From Candidatus Aldehydirespirator sp. (GTDB lineage Bacteria; Actinomycetota; Acidimicrobiia; Acidimicrobiales; Aldehydirespiratoraceae), in assembly GCA_965221215.1 (NCBI GenBank), contig OZ244872.1, forward strand, positions 3,030,340-3,094,339: a stretch of 64,000 nt of DNA. The letters are read 5' to 3'. A program made the position numbers and the translations under genes. The notes under the pieces are model-generated. The model was not told where the DNA came from and did not search any database. It was given only the letters and a program-made list of their open reading frames with translations. Shown here piece after piece: positions 5,877 to 35,660 of the stretch. Every line of letters begins with the position of its first letter. The first letter of the stretch is position 1.

Positions 5877-7196
5877 TCAGGGGCCGAGGGCGAATAGTGG
5901 TACTACTGTCACGCCGTCGGGGCGCTCGTATGAGTAGCCGTCGGCTGCGGTTATCACAATGAGCTTTGTTGCTTTGCCCATCTGGGTCGTGTCGACCTTG
6001 CTGTGGACGGCCAGCAGCGAGCGGGCAGCCTGCTCGATCTGCTCGCTGCCGCCCAGTTTGACCTCGACTGCGACCCAGCGGCCGTCTCCGGCGTCGACGA
6101 TGGCGTCGGCTTCGCTGCCGGCTGCGTCGCGGAATGCGAATACCTCAGCATCGACGGCTTGGGCGTAGATGCGCAGGTCCCGGATGACGAGCGATTCGAA
6201 CAGCAGGCCGAGCGTCTCGGGGTCGGACAGCAGACGCTCGGGCCCGGTTCGCAGAGCGGCGACGGCCAGTGACGGATCGGTGAAGTGATGCCGCGGACTC
6301 GATAGCAGCGGCGATCGGGAGCGCAGGTGGGTGGGCCACGCGGTCAGCGGTTCCAGCACATGGAGCCGTTCGAGTGCGTCGAGATAGGCGCGAACCGAAT
6401 GACGGCCGAGGGGAGCGGCTGCGCTGGCTTCGGTGGACAGTTTCTTGAGGCTTGCCGCCGTCCCGACGTTGCGGGCCAGCGAGCGCAGCAGCGCCTGCAC
6501 TCGCACCGGGTCTCGAGCGATGCCGTCGACTTGGCGGATGTCGGTGCGCGCCACATCGTCGAGGTAGCTGCGCAACGCGGCGATCACATCTCGCACCGGC
6601 ACGCTCTCGTCGAGGCCGGGCCAGCCGCCGCGGCACAGCGCATCGACCGCTTCGGGCACACCGCTTCCCGTCGGGCCCGCTTCGGCTGCTTCTCCCCGCA
6701 TGAGCCCGGCGAGCGACACCGCCTGGGTGGACAATCCACGTTCGGCGAGCGACATGGTCCGCAGTGCGAGGCGCTGGACGCGCAGCGCTCCCGAGTGCCG
6801 GGTGAGGTCATCAGACGGTGTGGCCGAGCCGGTCAGGATGAACTGACCTGCTGCGGCTCGGGCGTCGCACACGCCTCGGACGGCGCCCCACAGCGCCGGG
6901 ACTCGCTGCCACTCGTCGATCAATCTCGGTGTGGCGCCGTCCAGCGCCCGGTGGGGTTCGGCCTGGGCCAGCGCGAATGCCGCTGGATCTTGTTCCAGCA
7001 ACGCCTCGCTGCGAGCGAAGCGCTTCGCCAGCCATGTCTTGCCGCAGCCCTTGGGGCCTTCGACGAGCAGCGCCCGGGCGGTTCGTAGTATCCGTGCCGC
7101 ATTCGTCTCAGCGATGCGGACTCGGTAGCCCTCCGGTGTCAGAGTCGCTGCTGGCTCACCCGCCCCGCTGAGATCCATGAGCATGGAATCTACCAT
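5877..7196 (-). CDS. AAA-type ATPase with a DUF4143 C-terminal region (COG1373-like), paralogue 1
   Basis: Walker A GPKGCGKT, LIDEWQ (Walker B-like), FILTGSA, and C-terminal LFESLVIRDL...AVEVK. Roughly half of the residues match ORF 34103..35395. Confidence 0.75.
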   Translation of the reverse strand: MVDSMLMDLSGAGEPAATLTPEGYRVRIAETNAARILRTARALLVEGPKGCGKTWLAKRFARSEALLEQDPAAFALAQAEPHRALDGATPRLIDEWQRVPALWGAVRGVCDARAAAGQFILTGSATPSDDLTRHSGALRVQRLALRTMSLAERGLSTQAVSLAGLMRGEAAEAGPTGSGVPEAVDALCRGGWPGLDESVPVRDVIAALRSYLDDVARTDIRQVDGIARDPVRVQALLRSLARNVGTAASLKKLSTEASAAAPLGRHSVRAYLDALERLHVLEPLTAWPTHLRSRSPLLSSPRHHFTDPSLAVAALRTGPERLLSDPETLGLLFESLVIRDLRIYAQAVDAEVFAFRDAAGSEADAIVDAGDGRWVAVEVKLGGSEQIEQAARSLLAVHSKVDTTQMGKATKLIVITAADGYSYERPDGVTVVPLFALGP

Positions 7197-7474: not shown

Positions 7475-9364
7475 GTGGATATGCAGGTAGAAGCGTCGGG
7501 CTCCACGGTTGCGCTTGACAGTCGGGTGGTGGAGCCTTCGGTTGCCAATGCCTTGCCGCACTTTGCACCGCTGTTGATCTTTCCGCTGGTGGTGTGCGCC
7601 GTTGTCTACGGCGGGTGGTGGCTGGCGGGGCCCTTCGCCCTGTTCGGGCTCACCGGCCAGTTCGACAAGCTCTCCGGCGTCGGCGAGCGCAACATGGATC
7701 CGGCCACCACCGAGGAGAGCCAGCTCTTCCTCTACAAGCTCTCGATGTGGCTGTGGGGCTTCGCATGGCCGGCGGCGCTCATATTCTCGCTTTGGCAGAT
7801 GCTGATCAGGGGACATCTGGCGCGGTGGGAGGTCGCGCTGATGGCCGTGATCCTGGCGCTGGTGGGCCAGTCGGTGTTCATCGTGGGCCACGAGCTGGTC
7901 CACCGGCGGGTCCGCTGGGAGCGCCGCCTCGGCGAGTTCCTGCTGGCCTCCTCGTCCTACCCGCACTACGCCACCGAGCACGTCTACATCCACCATCCCC
8001 ATGTGGGTACCCCCCTCGACCCCGGCTCGGCCCCCAAGGGCGTGTCGCTGTGGCGCTACCTGCCCCCCGAGCTGAAACACAACCTGCTGGGCGCCTGGGA
8101 GTTCGAGCAGCGCCGCCTGGCCCGCCGCAAGCTGCCGCCGTGGCACTACACCAACGCCTTCTGGCGCTACGGCGCGGCCATCGTCTTCTGGTACGGGCTG
8201 GTGCTGTGGCTGGGCGGCCCGTGGGCGCTGCTGATCTACGTCGCGCTGTGCAGCACGGTGATCTTGTCGATGAAGACCAGCAACTACGTGCAGCACTACG
8301 GCCTGCGACGGGTGCGCATGCCCAGCGGCCGGTTCGAGTCGGTGAAGCCACGGCACGCCTGGAGCGCCGACTACAAGTTCACCAACTGGATGTATTACAA
8401 CATGCAGCGCCACGCCGACCACCACACCTCGAGCCTGCGCTACCCGCTGCTGCAGTACTGCGACGAGTCGGCGTCGCCGCAGCTTCCCGGCAGCTACGTG
8501 CAGATGAACACTCTGGCGTTCTTCCCCAAGCAGTGGTTCGCCACCATCGATCCCCTGCTCGACCGCCAGCGGACCCAGTTCTATCCAGAGATCGACGACT
8601 GGAGCGCCTACGACAGCCGGGCCTTCGCGGCCCGCCCCGACGCCTTCGACGCCATCGCCGAGATCCATGCGGAGGACCGGTATCTGGCCGAGTGGATCAA
8701 CGCCTCGCCGGAGCTGCTCGATCGGCTGCGCGACCGGGAGTTCACCGACTTGGAACTGCCCGACGGCATCGGGCTTGACCCGGAGTCCGAGGCGATCGCC
8801 CGCCAAGGGCTGGCTCGCCTGTATTGGACACGCGAGCTGAGCCTGGCCGAGATGAGGGCCCAGCTCGACGAGATGCCGGTGCAGGACAGCCGCGAGGCGG
8901 TGGCGGCGGCGCTGGAATGGTCCAACGGCAAGGTCTTCCAGATCGCGGTGCATGTGATGCGCGGCAGCCTGTCGGCCGACGAGGCAGCTACGGCGCGATC
9001 GCGGGTGGCCGAGGCCTCCATCGCCTTCGTGCTGGCCGCGGTGCAGCAGGACCTCGCCGACCGGGGCCGCGGCCGGGGCCAGGGCCAGGTGGCGGTGGCC
9101 GTGCTGGCGCCTCCGGCCGGCGACGGGGAGATGCCGCACGAGCCGCACGAGCCGCTCAAGGTCTGGTTCGCGTGCGAGGGCGGCGCGGCGCTGTGCCGCC
9201 GTACTGGCAAGGCACTCGACGCCCTGTCGAGCGACAACCTGCTGCTCGCCCCGGCCCAGCGCGTCAGCCCGGTCGAAGGTCAGACGCCCGCCGAGTTCGC
9301 GGCACAGCTCCAAGCCCCCGGCTCGGAGCACGAGGTGGCAACGGTGGTGATAACCGAAGCCTGA
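7475..9364 (+). CDS. alkB: AlkB-family integral-membrane non-heme di-iron hydroxylase with a ~235-aa C-terminal extension
   Basis: All four signature boxes are present: HELVHRR, EHVYIHH, NYVQHYGL and QRHADHH. The canonical fold ends near aa ~395 (nt ~8657); another ~235 aa follow with no Cys pairs, so this is not a rubredoxin fusion. Confidence 0.75.
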   Translation: MDMQVEASGSTVALDSRVVEPSVANALPHFAPLLIFPLVVCAVVYGGWWLAGPFALFGLTGQFDKLSGVGERNMDPATTEESQLFLYKLSMWLWGFAWPAALIFSLWQMLIRGHLARWEVALMAVILALVGQSVFIVGHELVHRRVRWERRLGEFLLASSSYPHYATEHVYIHHPHVGTPLDPGSAPKGVSLWRYLPPELKHNLLGAWEFEQRRLARRKLPPWHYTNAFWRYGAAIVFWYGLVLWLGGPWALLIYVALCSTVILSMKTSNYVQHYGLRRVRMPSGRFESVKPRHAWSADYKFTNWMYYNMQRHADHHTSSLRYPLLQYCDESASPQLPGSYVQMNTLAFFPKQWFATIDPLLDRQRTQFYPEIDDWSAYDSRAFAARPDAFDAIAEIHAEDRYLAEWINASPELLDRLRDREFTDLELPDGIGLDPESEAIARQGLARLYWTRELSLAEMRAQLDEMPVQDSREAVAAALEWSNGKVFQIAVHVMRGSLSADEAATARSRVAEASIAFVLAAVQQDLADRGRGRGQGQVAVAVLAPPAGDGEMPHEPHEPLKVWFACEGGAALCRRTGKALDALSSDNLLLAPAQRVSPVEGQTPAEFAAQLQAPGSEHEVATVVITEA

Positions 9365-9462
9365 CCTAGCGGGGATGTCCAGGCGCCGATCTGTTACATG
9401 GCAGAGCGCCAAAGTGTTAGATGAAACGGTGCCAGATGGTCATGTGGAGCGTTTGCGCGCGC

Positions 9463-12435
9463 TCAGGCCAGCTGTCGGCTCATTAGGTTCTGGAAAGCGC
9501 CCGGCTCGGCGGACAGCGCTGCGAACGTGCCCTCCTGAACGACTCGGCCTTCTTTCATCACGTATATCCGGTCGGCTTGGCGCAGAGTGGACAGGCGGTG
9601 CGCCACCACGATCCGCGTGGAGGTCAGGCCCGACAGATTGTCGAGGATTGTGGACTGGGTCTCGGCGTCGAGCCAACTGGTGGCCTCGTCCAGCATCAGG
9701 ATGCGGGGCCGGCGGATCAGGGCGTGGGCGATCTGGATTCGCTGGCTCTCGCCGCCGGAGGTGAGGGTGGCGCCCGCGCCCACCGGCGTCAGCAATCCCA
9801 TCGGCATCGCCGCGATCTCGCGGTCGACCGCGGCCAGCTCCGCCGCCCGCCAAGCATCGGCAGCGGTGGCGCCCTCGTGGTCGCCCACGATGTTGTCCCA
9901 CAGATCCTGGGGATGCAGTCGCACCATCTGCGGCACCACACCGATCTGGCGGCGCACCTGCTTGAGGTCGAGCTGCTGCAGGTCGCGGCCGTCGAAGTAG
10001 ATCGATCCGCCCGACGGCTGCTCCAGTCCGAGGGCGAGCCGCAGCAGGGTGCTCTTGCCCGCGCCGGACTCGCCCGCGATGGCTATGAACTCGCCCTTGC
10101 CGGCCCGGATCGACACCTCGTCGAGGATCAGCGGCCCGCTGGGATCGTGGCGGAAGGAGACCTGATCGAACACGACTTCGCCCCGCAGCTCCTCCACGAA
10201 CTCCCCCTCGGCCCTGATCTCGGTGGACTCGGCCAGCAGCGGTCGGAGCTGGCTTGCCGCGGGCAACACTGCGGCCAGGGCGCCGAACGATTCGCCCAGC
10301 CGCACGACGGTCCTCTGGTAGAGCAGGAACAGCACGAAGACCACGATGAAGTCGCCAGCCGCCAGAGAGTCCGGGTCGAGCAGCGTGGTCGCCAGGACCA
10401 CCGCCGCCCCGGCCAGCGACGGCAGCGCCGTGCCGAGGGCCCGCAGGTGCGCCTCGTGGCTGCCCGCATCGAGTTCGGCGCGCTTCTGCTTGCGGTAGCC
10501 CCGGGCCCAGAGCGCGAACCCAGAGCCCTCGGCACCGGCCACCCGCAGCCGCGGAATGCCGTTGATGAGCTGGAACAGCCGGCCCGACAGGCGCCGGACC
10601 GCTTTCAGGCGGCGGTCGTGGGGGCCGATCAGCCGCAGTCCGAGCGCTGCCGTCACCAGCAGTGACGCCAGGCTGAAGCCGGCCAACAGCGCGGCGAGCC
10701 GGGCGTCGCGCCCCGCGATGAGCACGAACACGGGCGCTAGGAACAGGATCGAGAGCACCCCGTTGCCGATCACGCCGTGGGCGGCGTCGCGTGCGTTCTG
10801 GAACGCCATGCCCCGCAGAGCCAGGTCGTTGGCCGGGTAGCGCCGCAGCACCCCGGTGGGCAGCCGCAGCAGCCGGTCCCAGAAGGCGGCCTCCATGCGG
10901 GAGGCGGCCCGGCCCTCGATGCGCATCAGCGACATGCGGTGCAGCAGGTGCAGCAGGGCTCGTACCACCCCGAAGGCCACCAGCGCCAGGCTGAGCCCGT
11001 ACAGCATCCCGGTGTCGCCCGCCGGGATCGCCTCGTCGGCGGCGACGCCTAGCGCCACCGCGGGCAGCAGCATGATCAGCCCGCCCGCCAGCCCGGTCGC
11101 GGCGAAGCGGGCCAGCTCCGGGCCCAGGCCGGCTCGGGCCACGCGCCACAGATCGCGTAGGCCGGCGCCGGTGGCGGGCAGCGACGGGTAGAAGGTCCAG
11201 GCCTGCGGCTTCAGCGATCCGGCGTTGGCGTCGGTGATCCGTCGCTTGTGGCCGCGGGCGGGATCGACCTCCCGGTAGTTCCCCAGCGCGCTGGGCAGCA
11301 GCGCCACGGGCCGGTCGTCGGTGGCCCGGAACGCCAGCATGGCGCCGCTGTCGCCGACCCACCAGCGGTCTTCGGGGACCAGCCGCACCTTGCGGCCGCG
11401 CCCCCCGGAGGCGGCGAGCATTCTGGCCACGGCGGCATCGGTGGTGGCGGCATTGCTGTCGGGGGTTTCCGGCGGACGCTGGAACTCGATGCGCTCGCGC
11501 CGGCCGATCAACTCCAACACACGGTGCAGCCCCGAGGGTTCGGTCTCGTCGTCGCGGCCGCGGTCGTGGACGTCGAGCAGGCGGTGTCGGGCCTCGGATT
11601 CGACGGTGCGGCGGCTGCTGACCAGCGCCCGGGCCAGGTTCGCCTGATCGACGACGGCCAGCCGCCGGTTGAGCCGCTCAAGCGACAACGCCACCCGATT
11701 GAAGGCGCCCACCGCCTCCAACAGCAGCCCCCGCTCGGCCAGGGCGGCCGAGGAGGTCGCACCGATGTGCGTCGGCTGGGTGAGCGTGAGCCAGGTGGCG
11801 GGCGTCAGCGGCAATGCGCCGCCTTCGCCGGGGTCGGGCTGGGCCGGGTCGGTTTCGGATGGGTCGGTTTCGGACGGGTCGATCAGGTCCATGAACAGCC
11901 CCGTGGAGGCCGGCAATTCGGTGACCCACACCGTGCCGCGGCGGGCCGCGACCCGGCCGCTGCGCGCCGCCGGCGCCTCGCCGGATTTCAGGAGTGCATC
12001 CATGGGCGGATGGGCGGTGCCGCGGGCCAGCATGGCCGAGATATCCGCGATCCAGGCGTCCATCTGCTGAGCCAGCTCGGCGCGGTCGACCGCTTCCAGT
12101 TCCGAGAGCCGCATGTGCCGCAGCTTCGTGCCGGGCAGCCCCTTGGCGATCAGCTCCAGGGCCGAGGTCTCGTCGTAGTGGGGCTGGACTCCGATCAGCA
12201 GGCGACCGGTACCGGCCCTCAGCACATGCTGCGGCGCGGCCTGCTGGACTCCCTGCTGCTTCTCGACCAGGAACAGGTCGACCGCGCCGGATTCGACGAA
12301 CCACACAAATCCGGGGTCGTCCAACTCGACGGGCCGGTTGGCCGCGCTCGCCACCGCCACGCCCCGCCTGGCCGCGACCCGGCCAAGCCGCTCAGTCATC
12401 CGGCCGTCTCCGGTTGGCTCGGCCAGCTCAGTCAT
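9463..12435 (-). CDS. NHLM/NHLP-system ABC exporter, permease/ATPase with an N-terminal cNMP-binding-like domain
   Basis: 990 aa counted from the ATG in the ATGA overlap at 12432..12435. It has an N-terminal beta-barrel-like region (FVWFVESGAVDLFLV), a TM domain, Walker A GESGAGKST, signature SGGESQR and Walker B ILMLDEATS. Confidence 0.8.
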   Translation of the reverse strand: MTELAEPTGDGRMTERLGRVAARRGVAVASAANRPVELDDPGFVWFVESGAVDLFLVEKQQGVQQAAPQHVLRAGTGRLLIGVQPHYDETSALELIAKGLPGTKLRHMRLSELEAVDRAELAQQMDAWIADISAMLARGTAHPPMDALLKSGEAPAARSGRVAARRGTVWVTELPASTGLFMDLIDPSETDPSETDPAQPDPGEGGALPLTPATWLTLTQPTHIGATSSAALAERGLLLEAVGAFNRVALSLERLNRRLAVVDQANLARALVSSRRTVESEARHRLLDVHDRGRDDETEPSGLHRVLELIGRRERIEFQRPPETPDSNAATTDAAVARMLAASGGRGRKVRLVPEDRWWVGDSGAMLAFRATDDRPVALLPSALGNYREVDPARGHKRRITDANAGSLKPQAWTFYPSLPATGAGLRDLWRVARAGLGPELARFAATGLAGGLIMLLPAVALGVAADEAIPAGDTGMLYGLSLALVAFGVVRALLHLLHRMSLMRIEGRAASRMEAAFWDRLLRLPTGVLRRYPANDLALRGMAFQNARDAAHGVIGNGVLSILFLAPVFVLIAGRDARLAALLAGFSLASLLVTAALGLRLIGPHDRRLKAVRRLSGRLFQLINGIPRLRVAGAEGSGFALWARGYRKQKRAELDAGSHEAHLRALGTALPSLAGAAVVLATTLLDPDSLAAGDFIVVFVLFLLYQRTVVRLGESFGALAAVLPAASQLRPLLAESTEIRAEGEFVEELRGEVVFDQVSFRHDPSGPLILDEVSIRAGKGEFIAIAGESGAGKSTLLRLALGLEQPSGGSIYFDGRDLQQLDLKQVRRQIGVVPQMVRLHPQDLWDNIVGDHEGATAADAWRAAELAAVDREIAAMPMGLLTPVGAGATLTSGGESQRIQIAHALIRRPRILMLDEATSWLDAETQSTILDNLSGLTSTRIVVAHRLSTLRQADRIYVMKEGRVVQEGTFAALSAEPGAFQNLMSRQLA

Positions 12436-14615
12436 CCGGCCAGCTCCGTGTGAACCAGGCGGTGGTAGATGCCGTCGGTGTCGGCCATCAGCTCGTCGTG
12501 GGTGCCTCGCTGCACCGCCGTGCCCGCATCGAGCACGATGATCTGGTCGCAGTCGCGCACCGTGCTCAGCCGGTGGGCGATGATCAGGCAGCTCACGCCC
12601 CGGCGGCGCAGCGCGTCGTCGACGGAGACCTCGGTAGTGGCGTCGAGCGCGCTGGTGGCCTCGTCGAGGATCAGCACCGTCGGATTCGGAACCAGGGCCC
12701 GGGCGATCTCCAGGCGCTGGCGCTGGCCGCCGCTGAAGTTGACCCCGTCCTCGGCCACCTCGGCGCCGTAGCCGCCGGGCCGTTTGAGGATGTCGTCGTG
12801 GATGGCGGCGTCGCGGGCCGCGGCGACCAAGTCGTCGTCGAGAACGGCCGGGTTCCACAACGCCAGGTTGTCTCGCACGGTGGCCGAGAACAGGACGGTG
12901 CGCTGGTCCACCATCGACACGGAGCGGGCCAGCACCTCGTCGGGAATCTCGTCGCGGGACCGGCCGTCGAAGCGGATCTCACCCGACCAGGGGTGCAGCA
13001 GGCCCGCCACCAGGCGCGACAGCGTCGACTTTCCCGATCCGCTCGGACCCACCACCGCCACCCGCTGGCCCGGCTCGAAGGCCAGGCTGAAGCCCTTGAT
13101 CAGCGGGGGTCGGTTGCGGTTGTAGCCGAAGGTCACGTCGCGCAGGTCGACGTGGCCGGCCAGGCGCAGCCGCCCGTCGACGGTGGCGATCGACTGCGAC
13201 GGCTCGGTGCGGCGGGCCGCGCCCGGATCCACCGGCGTCTCGATGATGTCGTCGAGGCGCTGCATGTCGGTCAGCAGGGTCTGGCGCTCGTGGGCGAACT
13301 CGGCGAAGCGCCCCACCGGCTCCAGGAACATGATCGCCACGAGGTAGACGGCCACCAGCCCGCCCAGCGTCAAGTCGCTGTCGGCCACCCTGGCGGCGCC
13401 CAGCGCCAGCACCGCCGCGCTCCCCAGGAACATGAACATGTCGGGGGCGACGGCCATGAGGTTGCTCAGCTCGAAGAAGCGCTGGCGGGTCTGCAGCTCG
13501 CGGGCCTGATGGCCGCTCCAGCGGCCGAACATGTGATCCTCGGCGGCCGCCATGCGCAGGTTGTCGGCCTGGCTCAGCATGATCGTGCTGATGCCGGCCA
13601 GCAGGCCCTGCTCGCGGCGCAGGGCGGAGGCTGCGTCGGCACGGATCCTCGCCACCGGGCGCAGCAGCAGCACCCCCAACGCCGCCAGGAGCAGCACCGC
13701 CGCGGCCAGCAGGGGGTCGTAGGCCGCCATCGCCACCAGGAACACCGCGCTCATGGCGACATCGACCAGCATGCCTCCGAAGCGTTCCGACAGGCCCTGG
13801 GCAACCTTGTCGACCGACAGGATGCGGGCGGTGAGGTCGCCGACCAGCCGGTGGCTGAAGTAGTCGATCGGCAGGCGCAGCAGATGCGACACGCAGCGGT
13901 TGCCGAGGGCTATCGAGACGCGGGTCGCCAGCCGTCCCAGCAAGCGCTGCTTCAGCCAAGAGACGCCGTACACGGCCAGTCCCGCCGCGGCCAGCGCCCC
14001 GGCCAGGCCGTATCCCCACGATTCGCCCTCGGCGAGCACGCGGTCGATGAACAGGCCGGCGGCCAGGGGCGCGGCCAGGGCGATCACGGCCAGGACCAGC
14101 CCACAGACGATGGTCCACACCAGCGGGCTCCAGGCGGCGCTCAGCCAGGCGGGCAGGCGCGGCAGCAGCCCTGTGGGTGCCCCTGCGGGCTCGAACTCCG
14201 GGCTCGGCTGAAAGGTCAGAGCCACCCCGGTGAACCCCTCGTCGAACTCTTGGGGGGTGAGCCGGCGGTGTCCCGAGGCCGGGTCGTTCAGGTAGATCCA
14301 CTTGCTGTCGAATCCCTCCAGCACCACGAAGTGGTTGAACTCCCAGAAGAGGATCATCGGCAGCGCCATCTGCTTGAGTCGGTCCACCGGCGCGCTCCAG
14401 CCCGAGCCCTCGAGACCGTAGTGCCGGGCCGCCCGCATAAGTCCGCCGGCCGTGGATCCGTCCCGTCCGACCTCGCAGGTGTCGCGCAGTTCGGTCAGCG
14501 GCTCCCAGCGCCCGAAGTGGGCCAGCACGCTGCCGAGGCAGGCCGCGCCGCACTCGGTTGCGTGGGTTTGCAGGAACAGCGGAGTGACGACCCTGCTGCC
14601 CTGAGTGTTCGCCAT
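12432..14615 (-). CDS. NHLP-system ABC exporter with an N-terminal C39 peptidase domain (peptidase/permease/ATPase)
   Basis: C39 catalytic Cys context (QTHATECGAACLGSVLAHFG), TM domain, Walker A GPSGSGKST, signature FSGGQRQR, Walker B LILDEATSALD. The start is taken at MANTQGS (14615). Confidence 0.85.
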   Translation of the reverse strand: MANTQGSRVVTPLFLQTHATECGAACLGSVLAHFGRWEPLTELRDTCEVGRDGSTAGGLMRAARHYGLEGSGWSAPVDRLKQMALPMILFWEFNHFVVLEGFDSKWIYLNDPASGHRRLTPQEFDEGFTGVALTFQPSPEFEPAGAPTGLLPRLPAWLSAAWSPLVWTIVCGLVLAVIALAAPLAAGLFIDRVLAEGESWGYGLAGALAAAGLAVYGVSWLKQRLLGRLATRVSIALGNRCVSHLLRLPIDYFSHRLVGDLTARILSVDKVAQGLSERFGGMLVDVAMSAVFLVAMAAYDPLLAAAVLLLAALGVLLLRPVARIRADAASALRREQGLLAGISTIMLSQADNLRMAAAEDHMFGRWSGHQARELQTRQRFFELSNLMAVAPDMFMFLGSAAVLALGAARVADSDLTLGGLVAVYLVAIMFLEPVGRFAEFAHERQTLLTDMQRLDDIIETPVDPGAARRTEPSQSIATVDGRLRLAGHVDLRDVTFGYNRNRPPLIKGFSLAFEPGQRVAVVGPSGSGKSTLSRLVAGLLHPWSGEIRFDGRSRDEIPDEVLARSVSMVDQRTVLFSATVRDNLALWNPAVLDDDLVAAARDAAIHDDILKRPGGYGAEVAEDGVNFSGGQRQRLEIARALVPNPTVLILDEATSALDATTEVSVDDALRRRGVSCLIIAHRLSTVRDCDQIIVLDAGTAVQRGTHDELMADTDGIYHRLVHTELAG

Positions 14616-14620
14616 CGGAT

Positions 14621-14809
14621 CTATCCGAGCAGGGCGGCGGGAGAGTATTGCCCGCCGAGGGCAACCCACAGCGCGGCGCCGAGAAGAATCAGTCCAACGG
14701 CAACCAGAACAATGCGTTGATGGGCCGCGGTGACACGGAGCAGACGGTCAAGTTGTTGGCGGCTGGACCTCGCCGCGATGGCTTGCTCCCGGAACGGGTT
14801 GTTGAACAT
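14621..14809 (-). CDS. 62-aa membrane-anchored stub resembling the N-terminus of HlyD-family NHLM secretion proteins
   Basis: NPFREQAIAARSSRQQLDRLLRVTAAHQRIVLVAVGLILLGAALWVALGG matches the FR.eAl....s.eqLD.ll.v + TM start of HlyD-type adaptors. The ORF stops 5 nt before the ABC start, and no coiled-coil or beta-barrel part is present. Confidence 0.5.
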   Translation of the reverse strand: MFNNPFREQAIAARSSRQQLDRLLRVTAAHQRIVLVAVGLILLGAALWVALGGQYSPAALLG

Positions 14810-14905
14810 GGAGTGAGTCTGTTTCCGTGAGTCTGTTGCGGACGGTGGCGCAATGACGTAGCGTTGCCCCGTTCAGTGTGCCCAATTGTCCACGGAGGTA
14901 ACAAT

Positions 14906-15190
14906 ATGAACACCATGGTGCAGTCGGCGGTACAGACGGCCGACGAGATGCAGCGCCAGCTGGTTGCCCGGGCGGCAGAGGATGCTGGCTTCCGCGCTCA
15001 GCTCGTTGCCGATCCCAAGGCGACCGTCAAGCAGGAGTTCGGCATCGACGTGCCCGACTCCGTCAACATTTCGGTGCATGAGAGCAACCTGAACGATCTG
15101 CACCTTGTCCTGCCCCCCGACGGCTCGGCCATCGAGCTCGACGAGGAGCGGCTGGAAGCGATAGCCGCGGGACTCTCCTGCTGCACCTGA
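14906..15190 (+). CDS. NHLP (nitrile-hydratase-like leader peptide) RiPP precursor, 89-aa leader plus 5-aa core LSCCT
   Basis: GGAGG lies 7 nt upstream of ATG 14906. The leader (QLVARAAEDAGFRAQLVADPKATVKQEFGIDVPDSVNISVHESNLNDLHLVLPP...LDEERLEAIAAG) aligns with the NHLP consensus, including the VLPP motif and the EL..V.GG-type cleavage motif. The C-terminus is LSCCT*. Confidence 0.85.
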   Translation: MNTMVQSAVQTADEMQRQLVARAAEDAGFRAQLVADPKATVKQEFGIDVPDSVNISVHESNLNDLHLVLPPDGSAIELDEERLEAIAAGLSCCT

Positions 15191-15248
15191 GCGGTCGCCT
15201 TCGAGCTCGCGGCCAGCCCGGAGCTTGAAGCGTCCACACCATCTGAAT

Positions 15249-15274
15249 CGGTGACCGCGGGGGCGCGGCCACCG
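15249..15274. terminator. Candidate bidirectional hairpin between convergent genes
   Basis: cggtgaccgcg-gggg-cgcggccaccg forms an 11-bp stem with 1 mismatch. It lies between the precursor stop (15190) and the stop of ORF 15288..16385. Confidence 0.35.
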
Positions 15275-15287
15275 ATTCGTGCTGTTC

Positions 15288-16385
15288 TCAGGGGGTGAAT
15301 CCCCCCGACAGCCAACAGAACACGTAGGCCTTGACCGCGTCGACTCGTTCATCGGTCAGTGTTGTCTTGAAGTGGTGTATCCCCCTCACTGCGAACAGCA
15401 TTCCTCGGCGTCCGAACACCGCTTCTGTGCCCGCCCATGACTCTGCAAGGGTGGACAGTTTCTCCGGCACTACCAGTTCCGAGGCGCTCAGGCCGCTTAT
15501 GAGCCGCTCCCAGGGTTCGACGTCCTTCAGCCATTGGGCGCTCGGGGGGTAGTAGCTCACCCCCAACTCGGGCCGGATGCCGTCGGAATCGACGTCAACG
15601 TGCGCTGCCAAGTAGCCGAAGGCGTTCTGCGACTCGAGGTTTCCGACGAACGAGGCGATGCCCTCGGGTTGTCCCGGCCAGCCGGCCCGCCGTAGGAACG
15701 TTGTGAGTTCTTCGGTGTTGGCAATACCGGTCACGGCCACTCGCAAGGCCCTGGCTCGATCAGGGAAGCCGCCCACGGTGCCGACATGGGCGCTCGGCGG
15801 CTTGGCCTCGAACAGTCGCTCGGCGTGTCGCCGCTCTTGCGTGTCGGGCGCCCAACCGCAAGCGCTGACGACCGCGTCGGTGATGGCGCTGAGATCCTCG
15901 GTGGCCTGGACCTCGCCGGCCGAGTCGGCGCTGGGGTAGAGGAAGATCCCCGGGGTGGGGAAGGGTGCCTGATCGATGTCGAACTCGAGCAGCAGCTTGG
16001 CGTGGGCGATGCCATGCAGCGAGGTCCGGTCGCGTTCCATGTCGCGCAATATGCCTACGACCGCCTGTGCGTACGAGTCTTCGGGCTGTGACTGTGCCCA
16101 CTGCTTGAAGTGCGCTGCCGACAGGGTGCCATGGAACAACGCCACGCCCAGATCGGCGTTGGGCTCGGATTCGTGGAGCCGCAGCTCGAACCCGAAACCG
16201 GAGGTGGCCAGGCTGACAGGCAGTGCGTTGGCCCGCTCCACCAGCCGGTTCCATCCGGCGCCGTCGATGAGCGCTGAGGGAATCCGGTCCTTGAACTGCT
16301 CCAGCAGCTCGCCGACGGAGTCCGCCTGGGCCAGCATGTGCTCTTCGATCGCGGCTCGAGCCTGCTCGACCTCCGTCGCTGCCAT
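15288..16385 (-). CDS. Hypothetical protein (365 aa), last gene of the cyclodehydratase operon; no family recognised
   Basis: Clean ORF with ordinary amino-acid composition, 43 nt downstream of the YcaO gene stop. It shows recurring short beta-strand-like segments (GFELRL, LLLEFDI, LRVAVTG, AAHVDVD, GVSYY, VKAYVF). Confidence 0.6.
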   Translation of the reverse strand: MAATEVEQARAAIEEHMLAQADSVGELLEQFKDRIPSALIDGAGWNRLVERANALPVSLATSGFGFELRLHESEPNADLGVALFHGTLSAAHFKQWAQSQPEDSYAQAVVGILRDMERDRTSLHGIAHAKLLLEFDIDQAPFPTPGIFLYPSADSAGEVQATEDLSAITDAVVSACGWAPDTQERRHAERLFEAKPPSAHVGTVGGFPDRARALRVAVTGIANTEELTTFLRRAGWPGQPEGIASFVGNLESQNAFGYLAAHVDVDSDGIRPELGVSYYPPSAQWLKDVEPWERLISGLSASELVVPEKLSTLAESWAGTEAVFGRRGMLFAVRGIHHFKTTLTDERVDAVKAYVFCWLSGGFTP

Positions 16386-16428
16386 CGTGTCCCCCCTTTG
16401 TTCCCCCTATGCGTCCTGTAGGCGCGGC

Positions 16429-18891
16429 TCAGGCTATAACCGGCACGGGGTTGAGCTGATCCTCTGACCGCGGGCTGTCGAGCCAGCTCATATTCACCGG
16501 CACGTCGAACAGCCGTCCGGGGGCGAAGCGGGCCCAGAAGTGGCGCATGCCCGGCACCACGACCCGGGCCACCGGCAGGCCGATGTCGGGCCGGGTCTGG
16601 TCGAGCACCAGGAACTCCATGCCGCGGGCTTCGACGAGCGCTTGGCAGCGTTGCACGTCCTCGCGGGTGTCGGCGGCGTCGGGAACCGGGTAGTCCGATT
16701 GGCCCCGCGTCGCCCGGTCGCTGGCCGGCGCCAGCCACTGGTGGTCCGCCAGCCTCCCGGTTTGCCACCACCGCAGGGTGGCGGGGTCGTTGAGGGCGCC
16801 CCGCACCGGTCCGGTCACCCATTGCAGGCACTGGTTCAGCTCGCAAACCGCCCGCAGGGCTGCGATGTGGGGATCGGAGTGGGCGCCGGCCCCGTAGAGG
16901 ATGTCCTCGGTGTCTGCGCCGGTGCGGCGGGAGACGGCCACGAAGACGGGGATGCCGAAGTCGCTGGTGGCGTCGAGCACCCACATCTCGCGGTCGCGGC
17001 GGCCGTAGTGGGCGGCCGCCGCGGCCAGGTACTCGTCGTCGAAGCTCGACAGGTCCACTTCGGGCAGCCGCAGCCGGTTGTACCACCAGAGGGCGAAGGC
17101 GTCGCGCTCGACGAGTTCGAGGAACCCCTGCAGGATCGCCTCGGAGAGGGTGTTGCCGGCGGCGCAGCCGTTGGAGTCGGCCTTGAGTCCGGAGCGGTCG
17201 GCCTCGCCCGCCATGCCGTAGAGGATCGCGGTGGGCACATGGCGGTGCCTTTGCTGGGTGAGCGACCACACCGGCGACCAGTCGATTTCGGCTTCGGGAT
17301 CGAGCCGGGGCGGAACGAAGTTGTAGGGGTGGCCCTCGGCGTTGATCTGGGCGGCTTCGTCGAGTTGGCGGTCGCTGAAGAGCTGGACGTCGTTGGGGTG
17401 GATCGCTTCGGACTCGGCGGCTTTCTCGAAGTCGGCCAGGCTGCGACGGGTGCGGATCTCGTCGCCGTGGAAGGCGCCGCTGTAACGCTCGATCGCCTCG
17501 CAGAGGGCGCTCGCCTCTGACTGCTGCGGGGTGCTGCCCTTGCCCGCGCTCTTGCTTCGCAGGCTGCGCCGCAGCGTGGGTAGGTTGCGGCTGCCGAGCG
17601 CGTAGTTGTTGCCGGCCCAGTAGACGTGCAGCCACGGGTCGGCCGCGTCGGTGGTGCGGGTGAGCCAGGTCACCACGCCGGTGATCGGGCTCACCAGGTG
17701 CCGGTACTTGGCCAGCGTCGCCTCGGGTGCCACGGCGCGGCGGCCGCCGCTGTTGTGTACCGGTGTGGGGCTCGCCTGCAGCCGTACCGGCTGTGCCGGC
17801 CGGTCGGGGCGGTACAGAGCCTCGTCGCCGCAGGCCCGGCACTGCGGCCGGCGCATGGCCCGATGCTGTCGGCTCTCGAGAGTGGCCGCATCCAGTGAGA
17901 CCGCGTGGTTGTGGATGGGGGCCAACTCGTCGAGCACCAGCCACTTGGCGATCTCGGTTGCGGCCAGCCCGCACACCGCCTCCGACACGGTCGGTTCCAG
18001 GGCGCGGGGCTGCACCGCTTGGGACTCGGCTGGTCCCCGCCCTCCGGGGGCTGCCCCGCTTGCCCCACACCCCCCCCCGTCGAGGTTGCGCAGGAAGTTG
18101 TGGATCTCCTGATGGGCGCCGAGGCGATAGGCGATGCATTTCCAGCATGGGCCGCCGTCGGCCGGCCGGAACACCGGCCCGAACAGCGGCTGCATTCCCC
18201 CGGGCCGCACCAGCATCCAGGGCGTGCCCGACTCGAGATGGCGGCGGTTGACGGTGGCGTGGCGCTCGTCGAGATAGTCGGCGCACACGACCACCGATAT
18301 CGAGGGGCGGCCGGTCGGCGAGGGGCGTTCGAGCGTTTCGGGGGTTTGGGCATCGCCGCCCGCGAGGATCGCCTGCCGGTGCTCGGTCACCGTGGTGCCG
18401 ATGTCGAGCGCGCCGGAGGGTGGGGCATCGCCGCCTGCGGGGATCGCCTGCCGGTGGTCGGCTGCTGTGGAGATGCCCAGCGCTTCGAGGTGGCGTGCCA
18501 GCGGTGGGCCCTCGACGGTGGCCGTCGCCTCTCGTAGCCGCTGCTCGGCCCAGCGAGGCGAGGCACCCAGCGACGACCAGTACGCGGCCCGTCCCGACGC
18601 CATGCTGTGATCGCCCGACACCAGATAGCCCCGCGACGCCAGCGCCGTGATCGCGGCCCGGACCTCGGCCGCCGAGTGTGTTGGGGCGAGTGCGGCGGCG
18701 ATCTCTGCGCTCGTGCGGCGTCCGTCGCACAGGGGCAGCAGATCGCAGTGGATCCGGCCTCTGAGCAAAGTGTTGAAAGTCTCCGAGACGAGCAGCAGTT
18801 GCTCGTCGCCAATCGGCCGAGAGTCGAGACAGGGAGTGAGCAGCGGTAGGTCGATGTGGCCGCGGTCAGCGGGGGTGGTCCGCTTCAGCAT
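16429..18891 (-). CDS. Fused TOMM cyclodehydratase: leader-binding/E1-like (ThiF-like) domain plus YcaO domain
   Basis: 820 aa. N-terminal wHTH-like region, E1-like part with two CxxC pairs (GPCWKC, PQCRAC), YcaO core (GKGSTPQQSEASALCEAIERYSG ... SNGCAAGNTLSEAILQGFLELVERDA) and a Pro-rich C-terminus NPVPVIA. Confidence 0.85.
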   Translation of the reverse strand: MLKRTTPADRGHIDLPLLTPCLDSRPIGDEQLLLVSETFNTLLRGRIHCDLLPLCDGRRTSAEIAAALAPTHSAAEVRAAITALASRGYLVSGDHSMASGRAAYWSSLGASPRWAEQRLREATATVEGPPLARHLEALGISTAADHRQAIPAGGDAPPSGALDIGTTVTEHRQAILAGGDAQTPETLERPSPTGRPSISVVVCADYLDERHATVNRRHLESGTPWMLVRPGGMQPLFGPVFRPADGGPCWKCIAYRLGAHQEIHNFLRNLDGGGCGASGAAPGGRGPAESQAVQPRALEPTVSEAVCGLAATEIAKWLVLDELAPIHNHAVSLDAATLESRQHRAMRRPQCRACGDEALYRPDRPAQPVRLQASPTPVHNSGGRRAVAPEATLAKYRHLVSPITGVVTWLTRTTDAADPWLHVYWAGNNYALGSRNLPTLRRSLRSKSAGKGSTPQQSEASALCEAIERYSGAFHGDEIRTRRSLADFEKAAESEAIHPNDVQLFSDRQLDEAAQINAEGHPYNFVPPRLDPEAEIDWSPVWSLTQQRHRHVPTAILYGMAGEADRSGLKADSNGCAAGNTLSEAILQGFLELVERDAFALWWYNRLRLPEVDLSSFDDEYLAAAAAHYGRRDREMWVLDATSDFGIPVFVAVSRRTGADTEDILYGAGAHSDPHIAALRAVCELNQCLQWVTGPVRGALNDPATLRWWQTGRLADHQWLAPASDRATRGQSDYPVPDAADTREDVQRCQALVEARGMEFLVLDQTRPDIGLPVARVVVPGMRHFWARFAPGRLFDVPVNMSWLDSPRSEDQLNPVPVIA

Positions 18892-18954
18892 GGCGGGTCG
18901 GGCTGCGCCAAGATCACCGGTTGGGTCTGCTTCAGCATCGCCGTCCGGGCTGCA

Positions 18955-20265
18955 TCAGGTTCCGAAGGGCATGCCGGCGGGGCTGAACACGCCGTCGGGA
19001 TCGAACTGTTGCTTCCATCGGATGCCCTGTTCGAGCATCTCGCCGTAGTGCTGCTCCCACTGGGTCGGGCTGTAGTCGACTTGGCCCGACAGGTAGCTCT
19101 TGGCGCCGAGTGCGACGAGATCCCGGTCGACCTCGGAGAGTTTGTTGGCGAACTCGACGGTCTTGTCGTGCTGGAATTCGCCCAGCCTCGCCAGGATGGA
19201 GTAGTTGAGGAGCCGCTCCTGGTGCGGGCGCATGAACAGCGGCGCCTCGAGGTCGCCCCTGACGATCGGGTAGAACCCGGTGAAGCTCCAGCCGGGGTTC
19301 GGCATTGACTCCGGACTCAGTGGCGGCTCCGCCAGCAGCGTCGGCAGGGCCTCCCAGGGCAGTAGCCAGTCCCGCCACGGATGGTGGTGCAGCCAGCTGA
19401 AGGCCCACGAGGGATACATCCCGGCTCGGCCGACGCTGGCGGTGTCGCGGGTGTGCACGAGTTCGTCGTGCCCGAGCGCGGCAAGGTCGCGTTCCTCATC
19501 GGGTGCCTCGTCGTACTCGTGGCCGGCCAGCAGCACGCCCAGGTTTTGGTGGTGGCGAACCTCCCCCCGCAGGTGGTCGAAGCGACCCGTCACCACCAGC
19601 AGATCGAGGTCGCCCGCGAACCGCTCGAAGTCGCGGTAGTGGAGTTCGTACTGCCGGAACCGCGCCCCGGCCGGGCGCAACCGGATCCAGGCCTCGGTGA
19701 TGATCCCGAACTGTCCCTGACCGCTTCGGACCGCGTCGAATAGCTCGGCGTTCTCGGTGGGCGAGCACAGGACTCGCTCACCGGTGCCGGTCACCACCTC
19801 GAGCCGCTCGACATTCTCGACCTGCGTGCCGTAGCGATGCGAGGTGGTGCCGATGCCGCCCGCGGCGAGCGTTCCGCCCACGGTGGCCTCACCGATGTCC
19901 ACCAGCACCGGCGGCAGCCGCCGAGCGCCCTTCAGCGCGTCCACCACGTCGCCCCAGCCGGCCCCGCCCTGGGCCCGCACCACTTCCGGTCCGGCGGGCT
20001 GGACCCGGTTCAGGCCGGTCATGTCGAGTACCGCGCCGCGGTCGGTGAGGGTCCGCCCACTCTGGGAGTGCCCGCCGCCCCGGATCGCCAGCCGGATCCC
20101 GGCTTTGGCCGCGTCGCGCACGAGTTTGGACACTTCGGTCACGGTCTGCGGCACAGCCACCGCGTCGGGCACCCGTCGGACGATCCGGCCGAAGTCGAAG
20201 GCCCGAGCCTCGCGCGCTTGCAGGTCGCGGGTCGCGCCCGAAAGGAGCTGCTCGCCGCCGGTCAT
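18955..20265 (-). CDS. FAD-linked oxidase of the PCMH/VAO superfamily, cytokinin-dehydrogenase-like
   Basis: Contains GGGHSQSG, TVGGTLAAGGIG, HHPWRDWLLP (compare the CKX HPWLN motif) and C-terminal KQQFDPDGVFSPAGMPF. The start is taken at MTGGEQ (20265). Confidence 0.75.
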   Translation of the reverse strand: MTGGEQLLSGATRDLQAREARAFDFGRIVRRVPDAVAVPQTVTEVSKLVRDAAKAGIRLAIRGGGHSQSGRTLTDRGAVLDMTGLNRVQPAGPEVVRAQGGAGWGDVVDALKGARRLPPVLVDIGEATVGGTLAAGGIGTTSHRYGTQVENVERLEVVTGTGERVLCSPTENAELFDAVRSGQGQFGIITEAWIRLRPAGARFRQYELHYRDFERFAGDLDLLVVTGRFDHLRGEVRHHQNLGVLLAGHEYDEAPDEERDLAALGHDELVHTRDTASVGRAGMYPSWAFSWLHHHPWRDWLLPWEALPTLLAEPPLSPESMPNPGWSFTGFYPIVRGDLEAPLFMRPHQERLLNYSILARLGEFQHDKTVEFANKLSEVDRDLVALGAKSYLSGQVDYSPTQWEQHYGEMLEQGIRWKQQFDPDGVFSPAGMPFGT

Positions 20266-20438
20266 TGTCGGGAGTCGCCCACCTCGGTCGTCATAATCGC
20301 CAGCGAACACTACCCGGCCTCCCCCACCCGGTACGCCGCACCGCGCGAGCGGCCGAGCAAATTCGGACCGTCAACCGGTGTCGTCGGGACCCAGAAGCGG
20401 TGTTGCCCGTGGCGGCCCGAGCGACCCCGAGCAGACCG

Positions 20439-35451: not shown

Positions 35452-35566
35452 AAGTGCGTTCTGGGAATGCTACGCAGTGCACTTTGGGAATGAAACGCAG
35501 TGCACGTTGGGAATGCTACACAGTGCACTTTGGGAATGAAGCGCAGCGCGTTTTGGGAATGTAGCG
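35452..35566. repeat. Five exact-period 23-bp tandem repeats (consensus CAGTGCACTTTGGGAATGMWACG)
   Basis: Units start at 35452, 35475, 35498, 35521 and 35544. Each contains a GTGCAC-like palindrome and TTGGGAATG. The array lies 57 bp upstream of the ATPase-2 start and 95 bp upstream of the DMGDH-like gene. Confidence 0.9.
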
Positions 35567-35660
35567 TGGGGTTTGCTGGCGGTGGGTTGGGGACTGGCGT
35601 AGATTGGCTCCGACTTGGGGCCGGACGGGCCGGACCTGCGAATCGACGGATGGGAGTTCA

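Follow-up and report, generated by a model that had tools for sequence, protein, structure and literature searches.

Within the window, by which we mean the whole analysed stretch of 64,000 nucleotides from Candidatus Aldehydirespirator sp. (assembly GCA_965221215.1, contig OZ244872.1, positions 3,030,340 to 3,094,339), the gene at 15288-16385 on the reverse strand encodes a protein of 365 amino acids (aa). Judging from sequence homology and a predicted structure we consider, with fairly good confidence, that this protein is a soluble, MppC-like and leader-dependent peptide prenyltransferase of the alpha-beta-beta-alpha (ABBA) type, which belongs to an azoline proteusin cluster of the srp kind (srp: sponge-derived RiPP proteusin; RiPP: ribosomally synthesised and post-translationally modified peptide). 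The initial annotation, made from the DNA letters alone, had described the protein as an orphan without family, encoded next to a YcaO cyclodehydratase gene and possibly a new tailoring component. From a pattern of seven short beta-strand-like segments it had ventured the guess of an ABBA-type barrel.

Structure prediction bears this guess out at the level of the fold. An AlphaFold2 model built from a 64-sequence alignment (pLDDT 91.8, pTM 0.91) is composed of five alpha-alpha-beta-beta repeats. According to DSSP of the model, the strand pairs comprise residues 64-69/77-84, 130-135/146-149, 200-206/214-221, 258-266/269-279 and 319-325 with 328-344/347-361, each pair being preceded by a pair of helices, and all seven segments pointed out in the initial annotation form strands. 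A Foldseek search of the PDB with this model returns 78 matches at E<=1e-3, the top 50 of which are ABBA aromatic prenyltransferases without exception (TM score 0.41-0.57, sequence identity 8-14%, E 3e-6 to 9e-5). FunA, AmbP3, IptA, FamD1, NphB/Orf2, DMATS1, CymD, EpzP, FgaPT2 and AnaPT are found among the matches. The protein is hence predicted to adopt the ABBA (PT-barrel) fold with its five repeats, an antiparallel barrel of roughly ten strands surrounded by helices. At the sequence level, membership in neither PF11468 (PTase_Orf2) nor PF11991 (Trp_DMAT) is detectable.

The closest characterised enzyme is reached through the lanthipeptide pathway of Moorena producens. MppC, a soluble ABBA prenyltransferase of this pathway, geranylates C5 of Trp82 in cyclised MppE and strictly requires the long Nif11 leader of its substrate, Mg2+ having been present in the assays (Wakeel, McShan & Agarwal, JACS 2025, PMC12715784). 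The mpp cluster with mppC (prenyltransferase) and mppD (terpene synthase) is described in PMC11791876. By means of a search with MppE we arrived at a contig encoding an 87%-identical precursor, an mpp-type locus of Moorena producens (L094), which repeats the published gene set of two arginases, LanM, precursor, Trp halogenase and an Amino_oxidase::SQHop_cyclase fusion, which is the counterpart of the “terpene synthase” mppD. Immediately behind the MppE homologue, this locus harbours a 375-aa gene without Pfam match (L094:10745-11872). The other two genes for which no Pfam family is recorded encode a protein with weak TPR matches and a pentapeptide-repeat protein, leaving L094:10745-11872 as the sole ABBA-type candidate of the locus and, by position and exclusion, as the presumptive MppC orthologue. 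It scores 152 bits against a broad profile made from the distant half of the family to which the window protein belongs (profile positions 23-353 of 358) and 68 bits against a narrow profile made from the close half. In a direct BLASTP comparison it shares 25% identity with the window protein over 354 aa (E 7e-18). Sequence comparison via this presumptive orthologue thus argues for the window protein being a member of the MppC-like family.

Both proteins have about 370 residues, a (predicted) ABBA barrel and no Pfam or NCBIfam model, and in both cases the gene lies beside that of a precursor whose long structured leader (Nif11 for MppC, NHLP in the window) ends in a GG/AG site. In contrast to MppC, whose substrate is a LanM-cyclised lanthipeptide receiving a geranyl group at Trp C5, the window protein is accompanied by a YcaO cyclodehydratase in place of LanM, for which no gene is present, and the core peptide LSCCT lacks Trp. 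According to the supplement of PMC12715784, 87 MppC-like sequences adjoin Nif11 genes and nine adjoin NHLP genes, and in similarity networks MppC-like sequences are unlinked to the PagF-like prenyltransferases of cyanobactin pathways.

Twelve residues, namely Glu67, Asp78, Glu134, Asp136, Arg210, Arg215, Asp264, Lys309, His338, Lys340, Lys352 and Tyr354, are shared by the window protein and the presumptive MppC orthologue; they represent every residue that is conserved across the family. A difference concerns positions 273 and 277, where Lys and Glu of the orthologue are replaced by Glu and Ser in the window protein. On the strands, the spacing i/i+2 is seen for Glu67, Asp78, Lys130/Glu134/Asp136, Arg215, His262/Asp264, His338/Lys340 and Lys352/Tyr354, which in the predicted fold is consistent with the conserved charged residues facing the lumen of the barrel.

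At positions 150, 262 and 277 of the barrel, the residue changes together with the class of core peptide encoded at the respective locus. This and all following locus counts refer to the best 80 of 393 loci from species-representative genomes.

Cores LCCCG, LSCCx and RCCC: Tyr150, His262, Ser277
Core xCCCGx: Arg150, His262, Ser277
Core LCCCW: Arg150, Asn262, Thr277
Core RCCCCx: Tyr150, His262, Gly277

In those primary copies which follow a YcaO gene, position 277 is occupied by Ser or Thr; for the core RCCCCx the compilation gives Gly. Such co-variation is as expected of residues in contact with the substrate. Two or three paralogues of the 365-aa protein are encoded at 14/80 loci. Loci with RCCC cores possess two or three such copies (L049:11090-12373; L059:11756-12928; L062:11209-12390; L004:12465-13673) and in addition carry genes for an MPAB_Lcp_cat oxygenase and an amine oxidase. 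The extra paralogues of the RCCC loci are devoid of Glu67, Asp78, Lys340 and Lys352/Tyr354, and from their sequences may be non-catalytic or act in a different manner.

The term orphan, if understood as rare, does not fit the family. A word-indexed search retrieved 104 close homologues, all of them unnamed. When 1.84 billion cluster representatives were searched exhaustively with a profile, 1,831 of them matched at E<=1e-3, 186 of these at E<=1e-30, and the 393 loci emerged from a scan with one genome per prokaryotic species. The best 80 loci originate nearly all from metagenome-assembled genomes of sponge symbionts. Acidimicrobiia, which furnish the closest of these homologues (82% identity), are represented along with Gemmatimonadota (Ca. 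Palauibacter), Alpha- and Gammaproteobacteria, Nitrospirales, Bryobacterales, Binatia, Nitrospinota and others, and synteny is preserved across eight or more phyla or classes of bacteria. That no family can be assigned, as noted in the initial annotation, holds for Pfam, for NCBIfam and for the sequences of the PDB, where neither the single protein nor the family profile retrieved anything beyond chance-level matches (thioredoxin reductase, PomB, a designed helical bundle). Neither do 65 distant relatives match Pfam at E<=0.01, nor did Pfam and NCBIfam scans of ten longer relatives reveal an informative fused domain, and the presumptive MppC orthologue is likewise without Pfam or NCBIfam match. 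About 1,800 sequence clusters, characterised MppC included, therefore lack a model in either collection and go unseen by standard annotation.

The association of the family with YcaO and NHLP genes, proposed in the initial annotation for one locus, proved nearly universal, so that the lack of co-occurrence named there as counter-evidence does not apply. An NHLP precursor is encoded at 76/80 loci, YcaO at 67/80 and at least one of the two at 79/80; the 76 precursors bear an x-(C/S)CC-x core behind AG. Further neighbours are a C39-peptidase ATP-binding cassette (ABC) transporter (66/80), a fusion of FA_desaturase with a GlnE-like domain (52/80), HlyD (50/80), MMPL (37/80), FAD_binding_4 (34/80), a methyltransferase (33/80) and a gene resembling short-chain synthases of farnesyl or geranylgeranyl diphosphate (FPP/GGPP; 16/80), the last providing a link to isoprenoid metabolism which supports the assignment as a prenyltransferase. 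The homologue is located directly downstream of YcaO on the same strand in 61/67 YcaO-bearing loci, and likewise in 61/67 loci the two genes overlap by 4 nucleotides (nt) or are separated by less than 150 nt. For 13/80 loci no YcaO match is present in the fetched stretch (up to 10 kb on each side), some of these stretches being clipped by contig ends. Three distant members of the family (L090, L092 and L093; 23-32% identity) still adjoin C39-ABC/HlyD export genes, and at L090, where two genes for NHLP precursors are present, no YcaO was called. Thus, the constant partner of the family is a leader-bearing peptide together with its exporter rather than YcaO. Together with fold and homology, this co-occurrence supports a tailoring role in a YcaO/NHLP pathway as originally suggested. 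As to its novelty, such a role is unmentioned in the srp literature that we covered, while the pathway as such turned out to be a variant of published srp.

The gene at L090 deserves a separate remark. Here, the family member overlaps by 4 nt with the gene of a 383-aa SQHop_cyclase-like protein and is translationally coupled to it (L090:7882-10004). A 320-aa “YDMC”-like protein is encoded nearby, and the precursor cores read RTWSCTCDDCNPD and GAWSCACKDPNCDPNDDD. The locus seems to represent another RiPP class, as yet uncharacterised, which makes use of the same prenyltransferase family.

The cluster in the window extends from about 7475 to 20310 and consists of the following elements:

7475..9364, + strand: FA_desaturase-like membrane di-iron protein (PF00487 5.9e-28)
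9463..12858, - strand: second ABC transporter, carrying a long extension at its N-terminus (PF00005, PF00664)
12432..14669, - strand: C39-peptidase ABC transporter (PCAT; PF03412 1e-30, PF00664, PF00005)
14621..14809, - strand: HlyD-type membrane-fusion gene, 62-aa stub (in phmmer aligned with the protein at locus L006, residues 4-56)
14906..15190, + strand: NHLP (proteusin-type) precursor, 94 aa (TIGR03793 2.5e-20; GGAGGT ribosome binding site upstream)
about 15245..15278, no strand: GC-rich 15-bp hairpin, loop CCCC, in the spacer where prenyltransferase and precursor genes converge (folding)
15288..16385, - strand: putative MppC-like ABBA peptide prenyltransferase, 365 aa (ATG open reading frame, fold model, homology)
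16386..16428, - strand: spacer of 43 nt between YcaO and prenyltransferase genes with a G-rich ribosome binding site (sequence)
16429..18891, - strand: SrpC-type, azoline-forming cyclodehydratase, 820 aa, with fused winged-helix/E1-like (leader-binding) and YcaO domains (PF02624 9.6e-97, TIGR03604 5.4e-81, TIGR03882 1.6e-38)
18955..20310, - strand: FAD_binding_4 (VAO/PCMH-type) flavoprotein oxidoreductase, encoded at the head of the operon (PF01565 8.4e-29)

That the open reading frame at 15288-16385 is a real gene of normal composition is confirmed by the GC fractions at its three codon positions (0.68/0.48/0.80), which are coding-like for a genome of about 70% GC, and its ATG is preceded at a distance of about 7 nt by the purine-rich ribosome binding site GGGGGG. 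The gap to the YcaO stop codon amounts to exactly the 43 nt given in the initial annotation. Since a scan of this spacer (16386-16428) did not reveal any terminator-like site, YcaO and prenyltransferase genes are regarded as co-operonic. On the other side, the gene converges on that of the TIGR03793 precursor, and the shared hairpin described earlier is indeed present in the 97-nt spacer between them: the 111-nt stretch 15185-15295 has a minimum free energy of -62.4 kcal/mol (z = -4.96), with 0/200 shuffled sequences folding as well. This hairpin is likely a bidirectional terminator. The true start of the precursor is the ATG at 14906, and its C-terminus reads ...LEAIAAG-LSCCT, the five-residue core LSCCT following directly behind the AG cleavage motif.

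These features identify the relationship of the cluster to srp. The core of the precursor SrpE is LCCCW, of which the YcaO protein SrpC reportedly turns all three Cys residues into thiazolines (PMC10858898). SrpI brominates the terminal Trp of SrpE, and the final srp product is still cryptic (PMC10858898, PMC10286304). Acting alone in E. coli, SrpC is reported as poorly active and as giving partially modified products (PMC10286304). The srp clusters are described as widespread in sponge microbiomes; their transcripts are plentiful across phyla and place srp among the most highly transcribed biosynthetic genes there (PMC10858898, bioRxiv 10.1101/2023.06.09.544420). The precursors of the related loci share the motif EEQLEAI(A/S)AG followed by LCCCG, LSCCx, RCCC, RCCCCx, xCCCGx or LCCCW, i.e. 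an NHLP precursor with the EEQLEAI-AG motif and a Cys-rich core of 4-6 residues as in srp. An SrpC-type fused YcaO, C39-ABC export genes and the origin from sponge-symbiont genomes of many phyla are also common to both, and loci with an LCCCW core possess a homologue of the 365-aa gene directly behind YcaO (L080). In contrast to srp, the core in the window is LSCCT, ending in Thr, and a FAD_binding_4 oxidoreductase heads the operon. A SrpI-type halogenase was not found among the cluster genes in general scans, no halogenase-specific query having been run, and a query for flavin amine oxidases gave in the window nothing but a weak partial match at 35565-38117, far from the cluster. On the basis of these sequence comparisons, the cluster is best described as a Trp-less variant of the published srp cluster and does not constitute a new pathway. 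Neither the 365-aa gene nor prenylation is mentioned in the srp literature covered, which does not include the primary 2021 JACS paper (Nguyen et al., doi 10.1021/jacs.1c03474).

For activity, donor, acceptor and order of steps, we infer from the observed operon structure, co-occurrence, homology and fold the following course of events. The convergent gene would yield the 94-aa NHLP precursor, whereupon the fused RRE/E1-like YcaO protein would cyclodehydrate Cys (possibly Ser/Thr) residues of LSCCT to azolines. The prenyltransferase, translated from the mRNA of YcaO and just after it, would dock on the structured NHLP leader, the short core being threaded into one end of the barrel while a prenyl diphosphate and Mg2+ would be held at the other end. 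Likely ligands are the presumably lumen-facing Asp78, Glu134/Asp136, Arg210/Arg215, His338/Lys340 and Lys352/Tyr354. The prenyl cation would then be passed to a nucleophile of the core and, ultimately, the C39-peptidase ABC transporter would cut after Ala-Gly and export a small prenylated azoline peptide. Since LSCCT does not contain Trp, the acceptor cannot, unlike that of MppC, be this residue and is probably a new one. S-prenylation is favoured because (C/S)-C-C is the only element common to all related cores; as a leading yet speculative guess, the acceptor may be the thiol of a cysteine escaping cyclisation. As main alternative we consider the C-terminal carboxylate. The nearest product analogy is offered by muscoride and aeruginosamide, linear azole peptides of small size with prenylated termini. 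By such analogy (review PMC13290415), prenylation of the carboxylate is conceivable, though speculative.

We would also put forward, as a tentative proposal which we think has a minor chance of being correct, that the prenyltransferases encoded after YcaO in srp-type clusters carry out a prenylation without precedent in RiPPs in which, most likely, a Cys is S-prenylated or else a thiazoline or the C-terminal carboxylate is alkylated within a core of 4-6 residues. If so, srp products would be small prenylated thiazoline lipopeptides occurring across many sponge-bacterial phyla, with the Trp-ending variants further elaborated by a terpene-cyclase-like protein. The presence of the putative prenyltransferase suggests that the sponge-bacterial srp-type peptides, whose final structure is still cryptic, are lipidated. 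Since a gene of this family lies directly after YcaO in 61/67 loci, the mass and polarity to be expected in sponge extracts should be those of a lipidated peptide instead of a bare brominated tri-thiazoline peptide. The missing prenyltransferase may also explain the poor behaviour of SrpC alone in E. coli. If active, the enzyme would carry leader-guided ABBA prenylation beyond the Trp of lanthipeptides to azoline peptides devoid of Trp, where the acceptor atom might be new.

Several observations weigh against the assignment as an active peptide prenyltransferase. The protein does not match any Pfam (E<=0.1) or NCBIfam model, and comparison by hhalign with a 48-sequence alignment of the NphB/Orf2 family, built for this purpose from an NphB query checked against 1ZB6, gives a probability below 1% (0.3-0.4%). 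One non-significant hhalign alignment places Asp78 opposite the Mg2+-binding Asp62 of NphB; we do not rely on it. L094:10745-11872 was taken as the MppC orthologue by position and exclusion rather than by the published sequence, and W336 and F340, as numbered in the publication on MppC, find no direct match in it. Glu277, a residue of the presumptive orthologue that about 97% of the distant clade share, is replaced by Ser in the clade of the window protein. The orientation of the conserved residues towards the lumen was deduced solely from their i/i+2 spacing on the strands instead of model coordinates, and for the members linked to YcaO or NHLP genes prenyltransferase activity is a prediction. 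The core LSCCT is free of aromatic residues, unlike the core modified by MppC, the sole characterised relative. SrpC is reported to convert every Cys of LCCCW, so that no thiol would remain there for S-prenylation. Finally, a gene for a prenyl-diphosphate synthase was not found in the window.

Alternatively, the gene might encode a protein which has lost its activity and, comparable to PatF of the patellamide pathway, serves as an ABBA scaffold or chaperone presenting the NHLP precursor to YcaO or to the exporter. Such a role would agree with the tight coupling to YcaO (4-nt overlaps or short gaps in 61/67 loci), and the weak performance of SrpC alone in E. coli (PMC10286304) would fit a missing partner. 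That the fold can persist without Glu67, Asp78, Lys340 and Lys352/Tyr354 is evident from the paralogues at RCCC loci. The primary copy, however, retains every residue it has in common with the presumptive MppC orthologue, and charged residues conserved on the strands are hard to square with a function in surface binding. In addition, YcaO possesses a winged-helix/E1-like leader-binding domain of its own, the L090 member resides beside two NHLP precursors with no YcaO called, and 13/80 loci are without YcaO match in the stretch fetched, which for some is clipped by contig ends. We therefore regard a scaffold as rather unlikely. A role as obligate partner of YcaO was considered and dropped, as the family also occurs with no YcaO nearby and YcaO binds the leader by its own domain. 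A function as azoline dehydrogenase was discarded because of the wrong fold and the lack of a flavin-binding motif.

The absence of an aromatic acceptor from the core, together with the fact that the classical ABBA enzymes, which make up all top Foldseek matches, prenylate small aromatic compounds, could also point to an active prenyltransferase whose acceptor is a small molecule or lipid supplied by the FA_desaturase-like, polyprenyl-synthase and MMPL genes of a hybrid or co-regulated cluster, these genes being encoded at 52/80, 16/80 and 37/80 loci, respectively. Yet, it is the NHLP precursor (76/80) and the C39-ABC transporter (66/80), not lipid genes, that accompany the family most constantly, and in the window the prenyltransferase is intact although the desaturase is truncated and HlyD reduced to a stub. 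Moreover, the characterised relative MppC acts on a peptide and needs its leader (PMC12715784), and positions 150, 262 and 277 track the sequence of the core. An acceptor of this kind thus seems quite improbable to us. Scarcely any credence can be given to a housekeeping or otherwise unrelated gene which lies between YcaO and precursor genes by chance. The missing database annotation is the sole point in its favour, while synteny in at least eight phyla or classes and the presence of an NHLP precursor or YcaO at 79/80 loci effectively refute it, so that this candidate was dropped; besides, the best 80 loci are nearly all from sponge symbionts, and hem genes appear only past 20439. Hence, a leader-dependent peptide prenyltransferase remains our preferred assignment.

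Compared with this assignment, the F-family of cyanobactin pathways (PagF, LynF, TruF, MusF1/2, AgeMTPT) also uses the ABBA barrel to modify ribosomal peptides, often with azol(in)es made by YcaO. The window protein shows no detectable sequence similarity to them, being devoid of any NCBIfam/Pfam match, and has none of these enzymes in its top 50 Foldseek matches. The cyanobactin enzymes act after removal of the leader. Scans of the window cluster revealed the C39-ABC exporter, but neither PatA/PatG nor subtilisin-type proteases. NphB/Orf2 (PF11468) and DMATS/FgaPT2 (PF11991) resemble the window protein in fold, but convert small aromatic compounds in place of leader-bearing peptides. The NctPC type (Hubrich et al., Chem 2024, as cited in PMC13290415) can, as far as the description in this review reaches, be likened to it as ABBA-type enzymes of low similarity to the cyanobactin ones, with a RiPP substrate and a terpene cyclase partner; according to the same description it is, however, a fusion enzyme which transfers geranylgeranyl to Trp (PMC13290415).

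A parallel to this partnership exists at LCCCW-type srp loci, where a family member is paired with the gene of a protein of about 430-450 aa that combines an N-terminal NHLP-leader-like domain (TIGR03793, 1.4e-11) with a weakly matching SQHop_cyclase-like alpha/alpha toroid:

L080:3857-5158: NHLP::SQHop_cyclase-like toroid protein
L066:8518-9861: NHLP::SQHop_cyclase-like toroid protein
L076:8257-9831: NHLP::SQHop_cyclase-like toroid protein

This gene is present at 10/14 Trp-ending (LCCCW) loci versus at most 4/60 others, some false positives being included, and in several loci it is situated directly upstream of the prenyltransferase homologue. By analogy with mppC/mppD the pairing hints at a terpene cyclisation taking place on the peptide. 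In the window a cyclase-like gene was not found.

Concerning the remaining genes of the cluster, the FAD_binding_4 protein may be involved in the oxidation of azolines or in another oxidation. The PCAT is presumed to be the exporter which cleaves the leader. Homologues of the second ABC transporter comprise 966-977 aa and their genes overlap with the PCAT gene by 4 nt; the start annotated for the window gene (9463..12858) probably lies too far upstream, and translation is likely to begin near 12435. The 62-aa HlyD N-terminal stub overlaps the start of the C39-ABC gene. Related loci encode HlyD versions of 267-297 aa, and the full HlyD protein of L006 carries PF13437 (HlyD_3). The exporter may work without a HlyD protein, or the cluster may be decaying. 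At L001 a comparably short gene (68 aa) occupies the HlyD position, the likeness being one of size and place.

The desaturase gene of the window is inverted compared to the normal gene order. Its product corresponds to residues 3-622 of a 799-aa protein at L006 (L006:17689-20088), the last approximately 175 residues being lost. In the relatives, the fusion protein of about 800 aa consists of an FA_desaturase membrane domain and a GlnE/GlnD-like nucleotidyltransferase domain, and at L006 an FPP/GGPP-synthase-like gene overlaps the end of the desaturase fusion gene. Upstream of the operon, the housekeeping genes of haem biosynthesis (hemA, hemC, hemD) start only past 20439. The rearranged end of the cluster is adjoined by an AAA/DUF4143 ATPase gene (5877-7196, - strand), beyond which lies a gene (21-4682, + strand) whose 1,553-aa product contains five Calx-beta domains.

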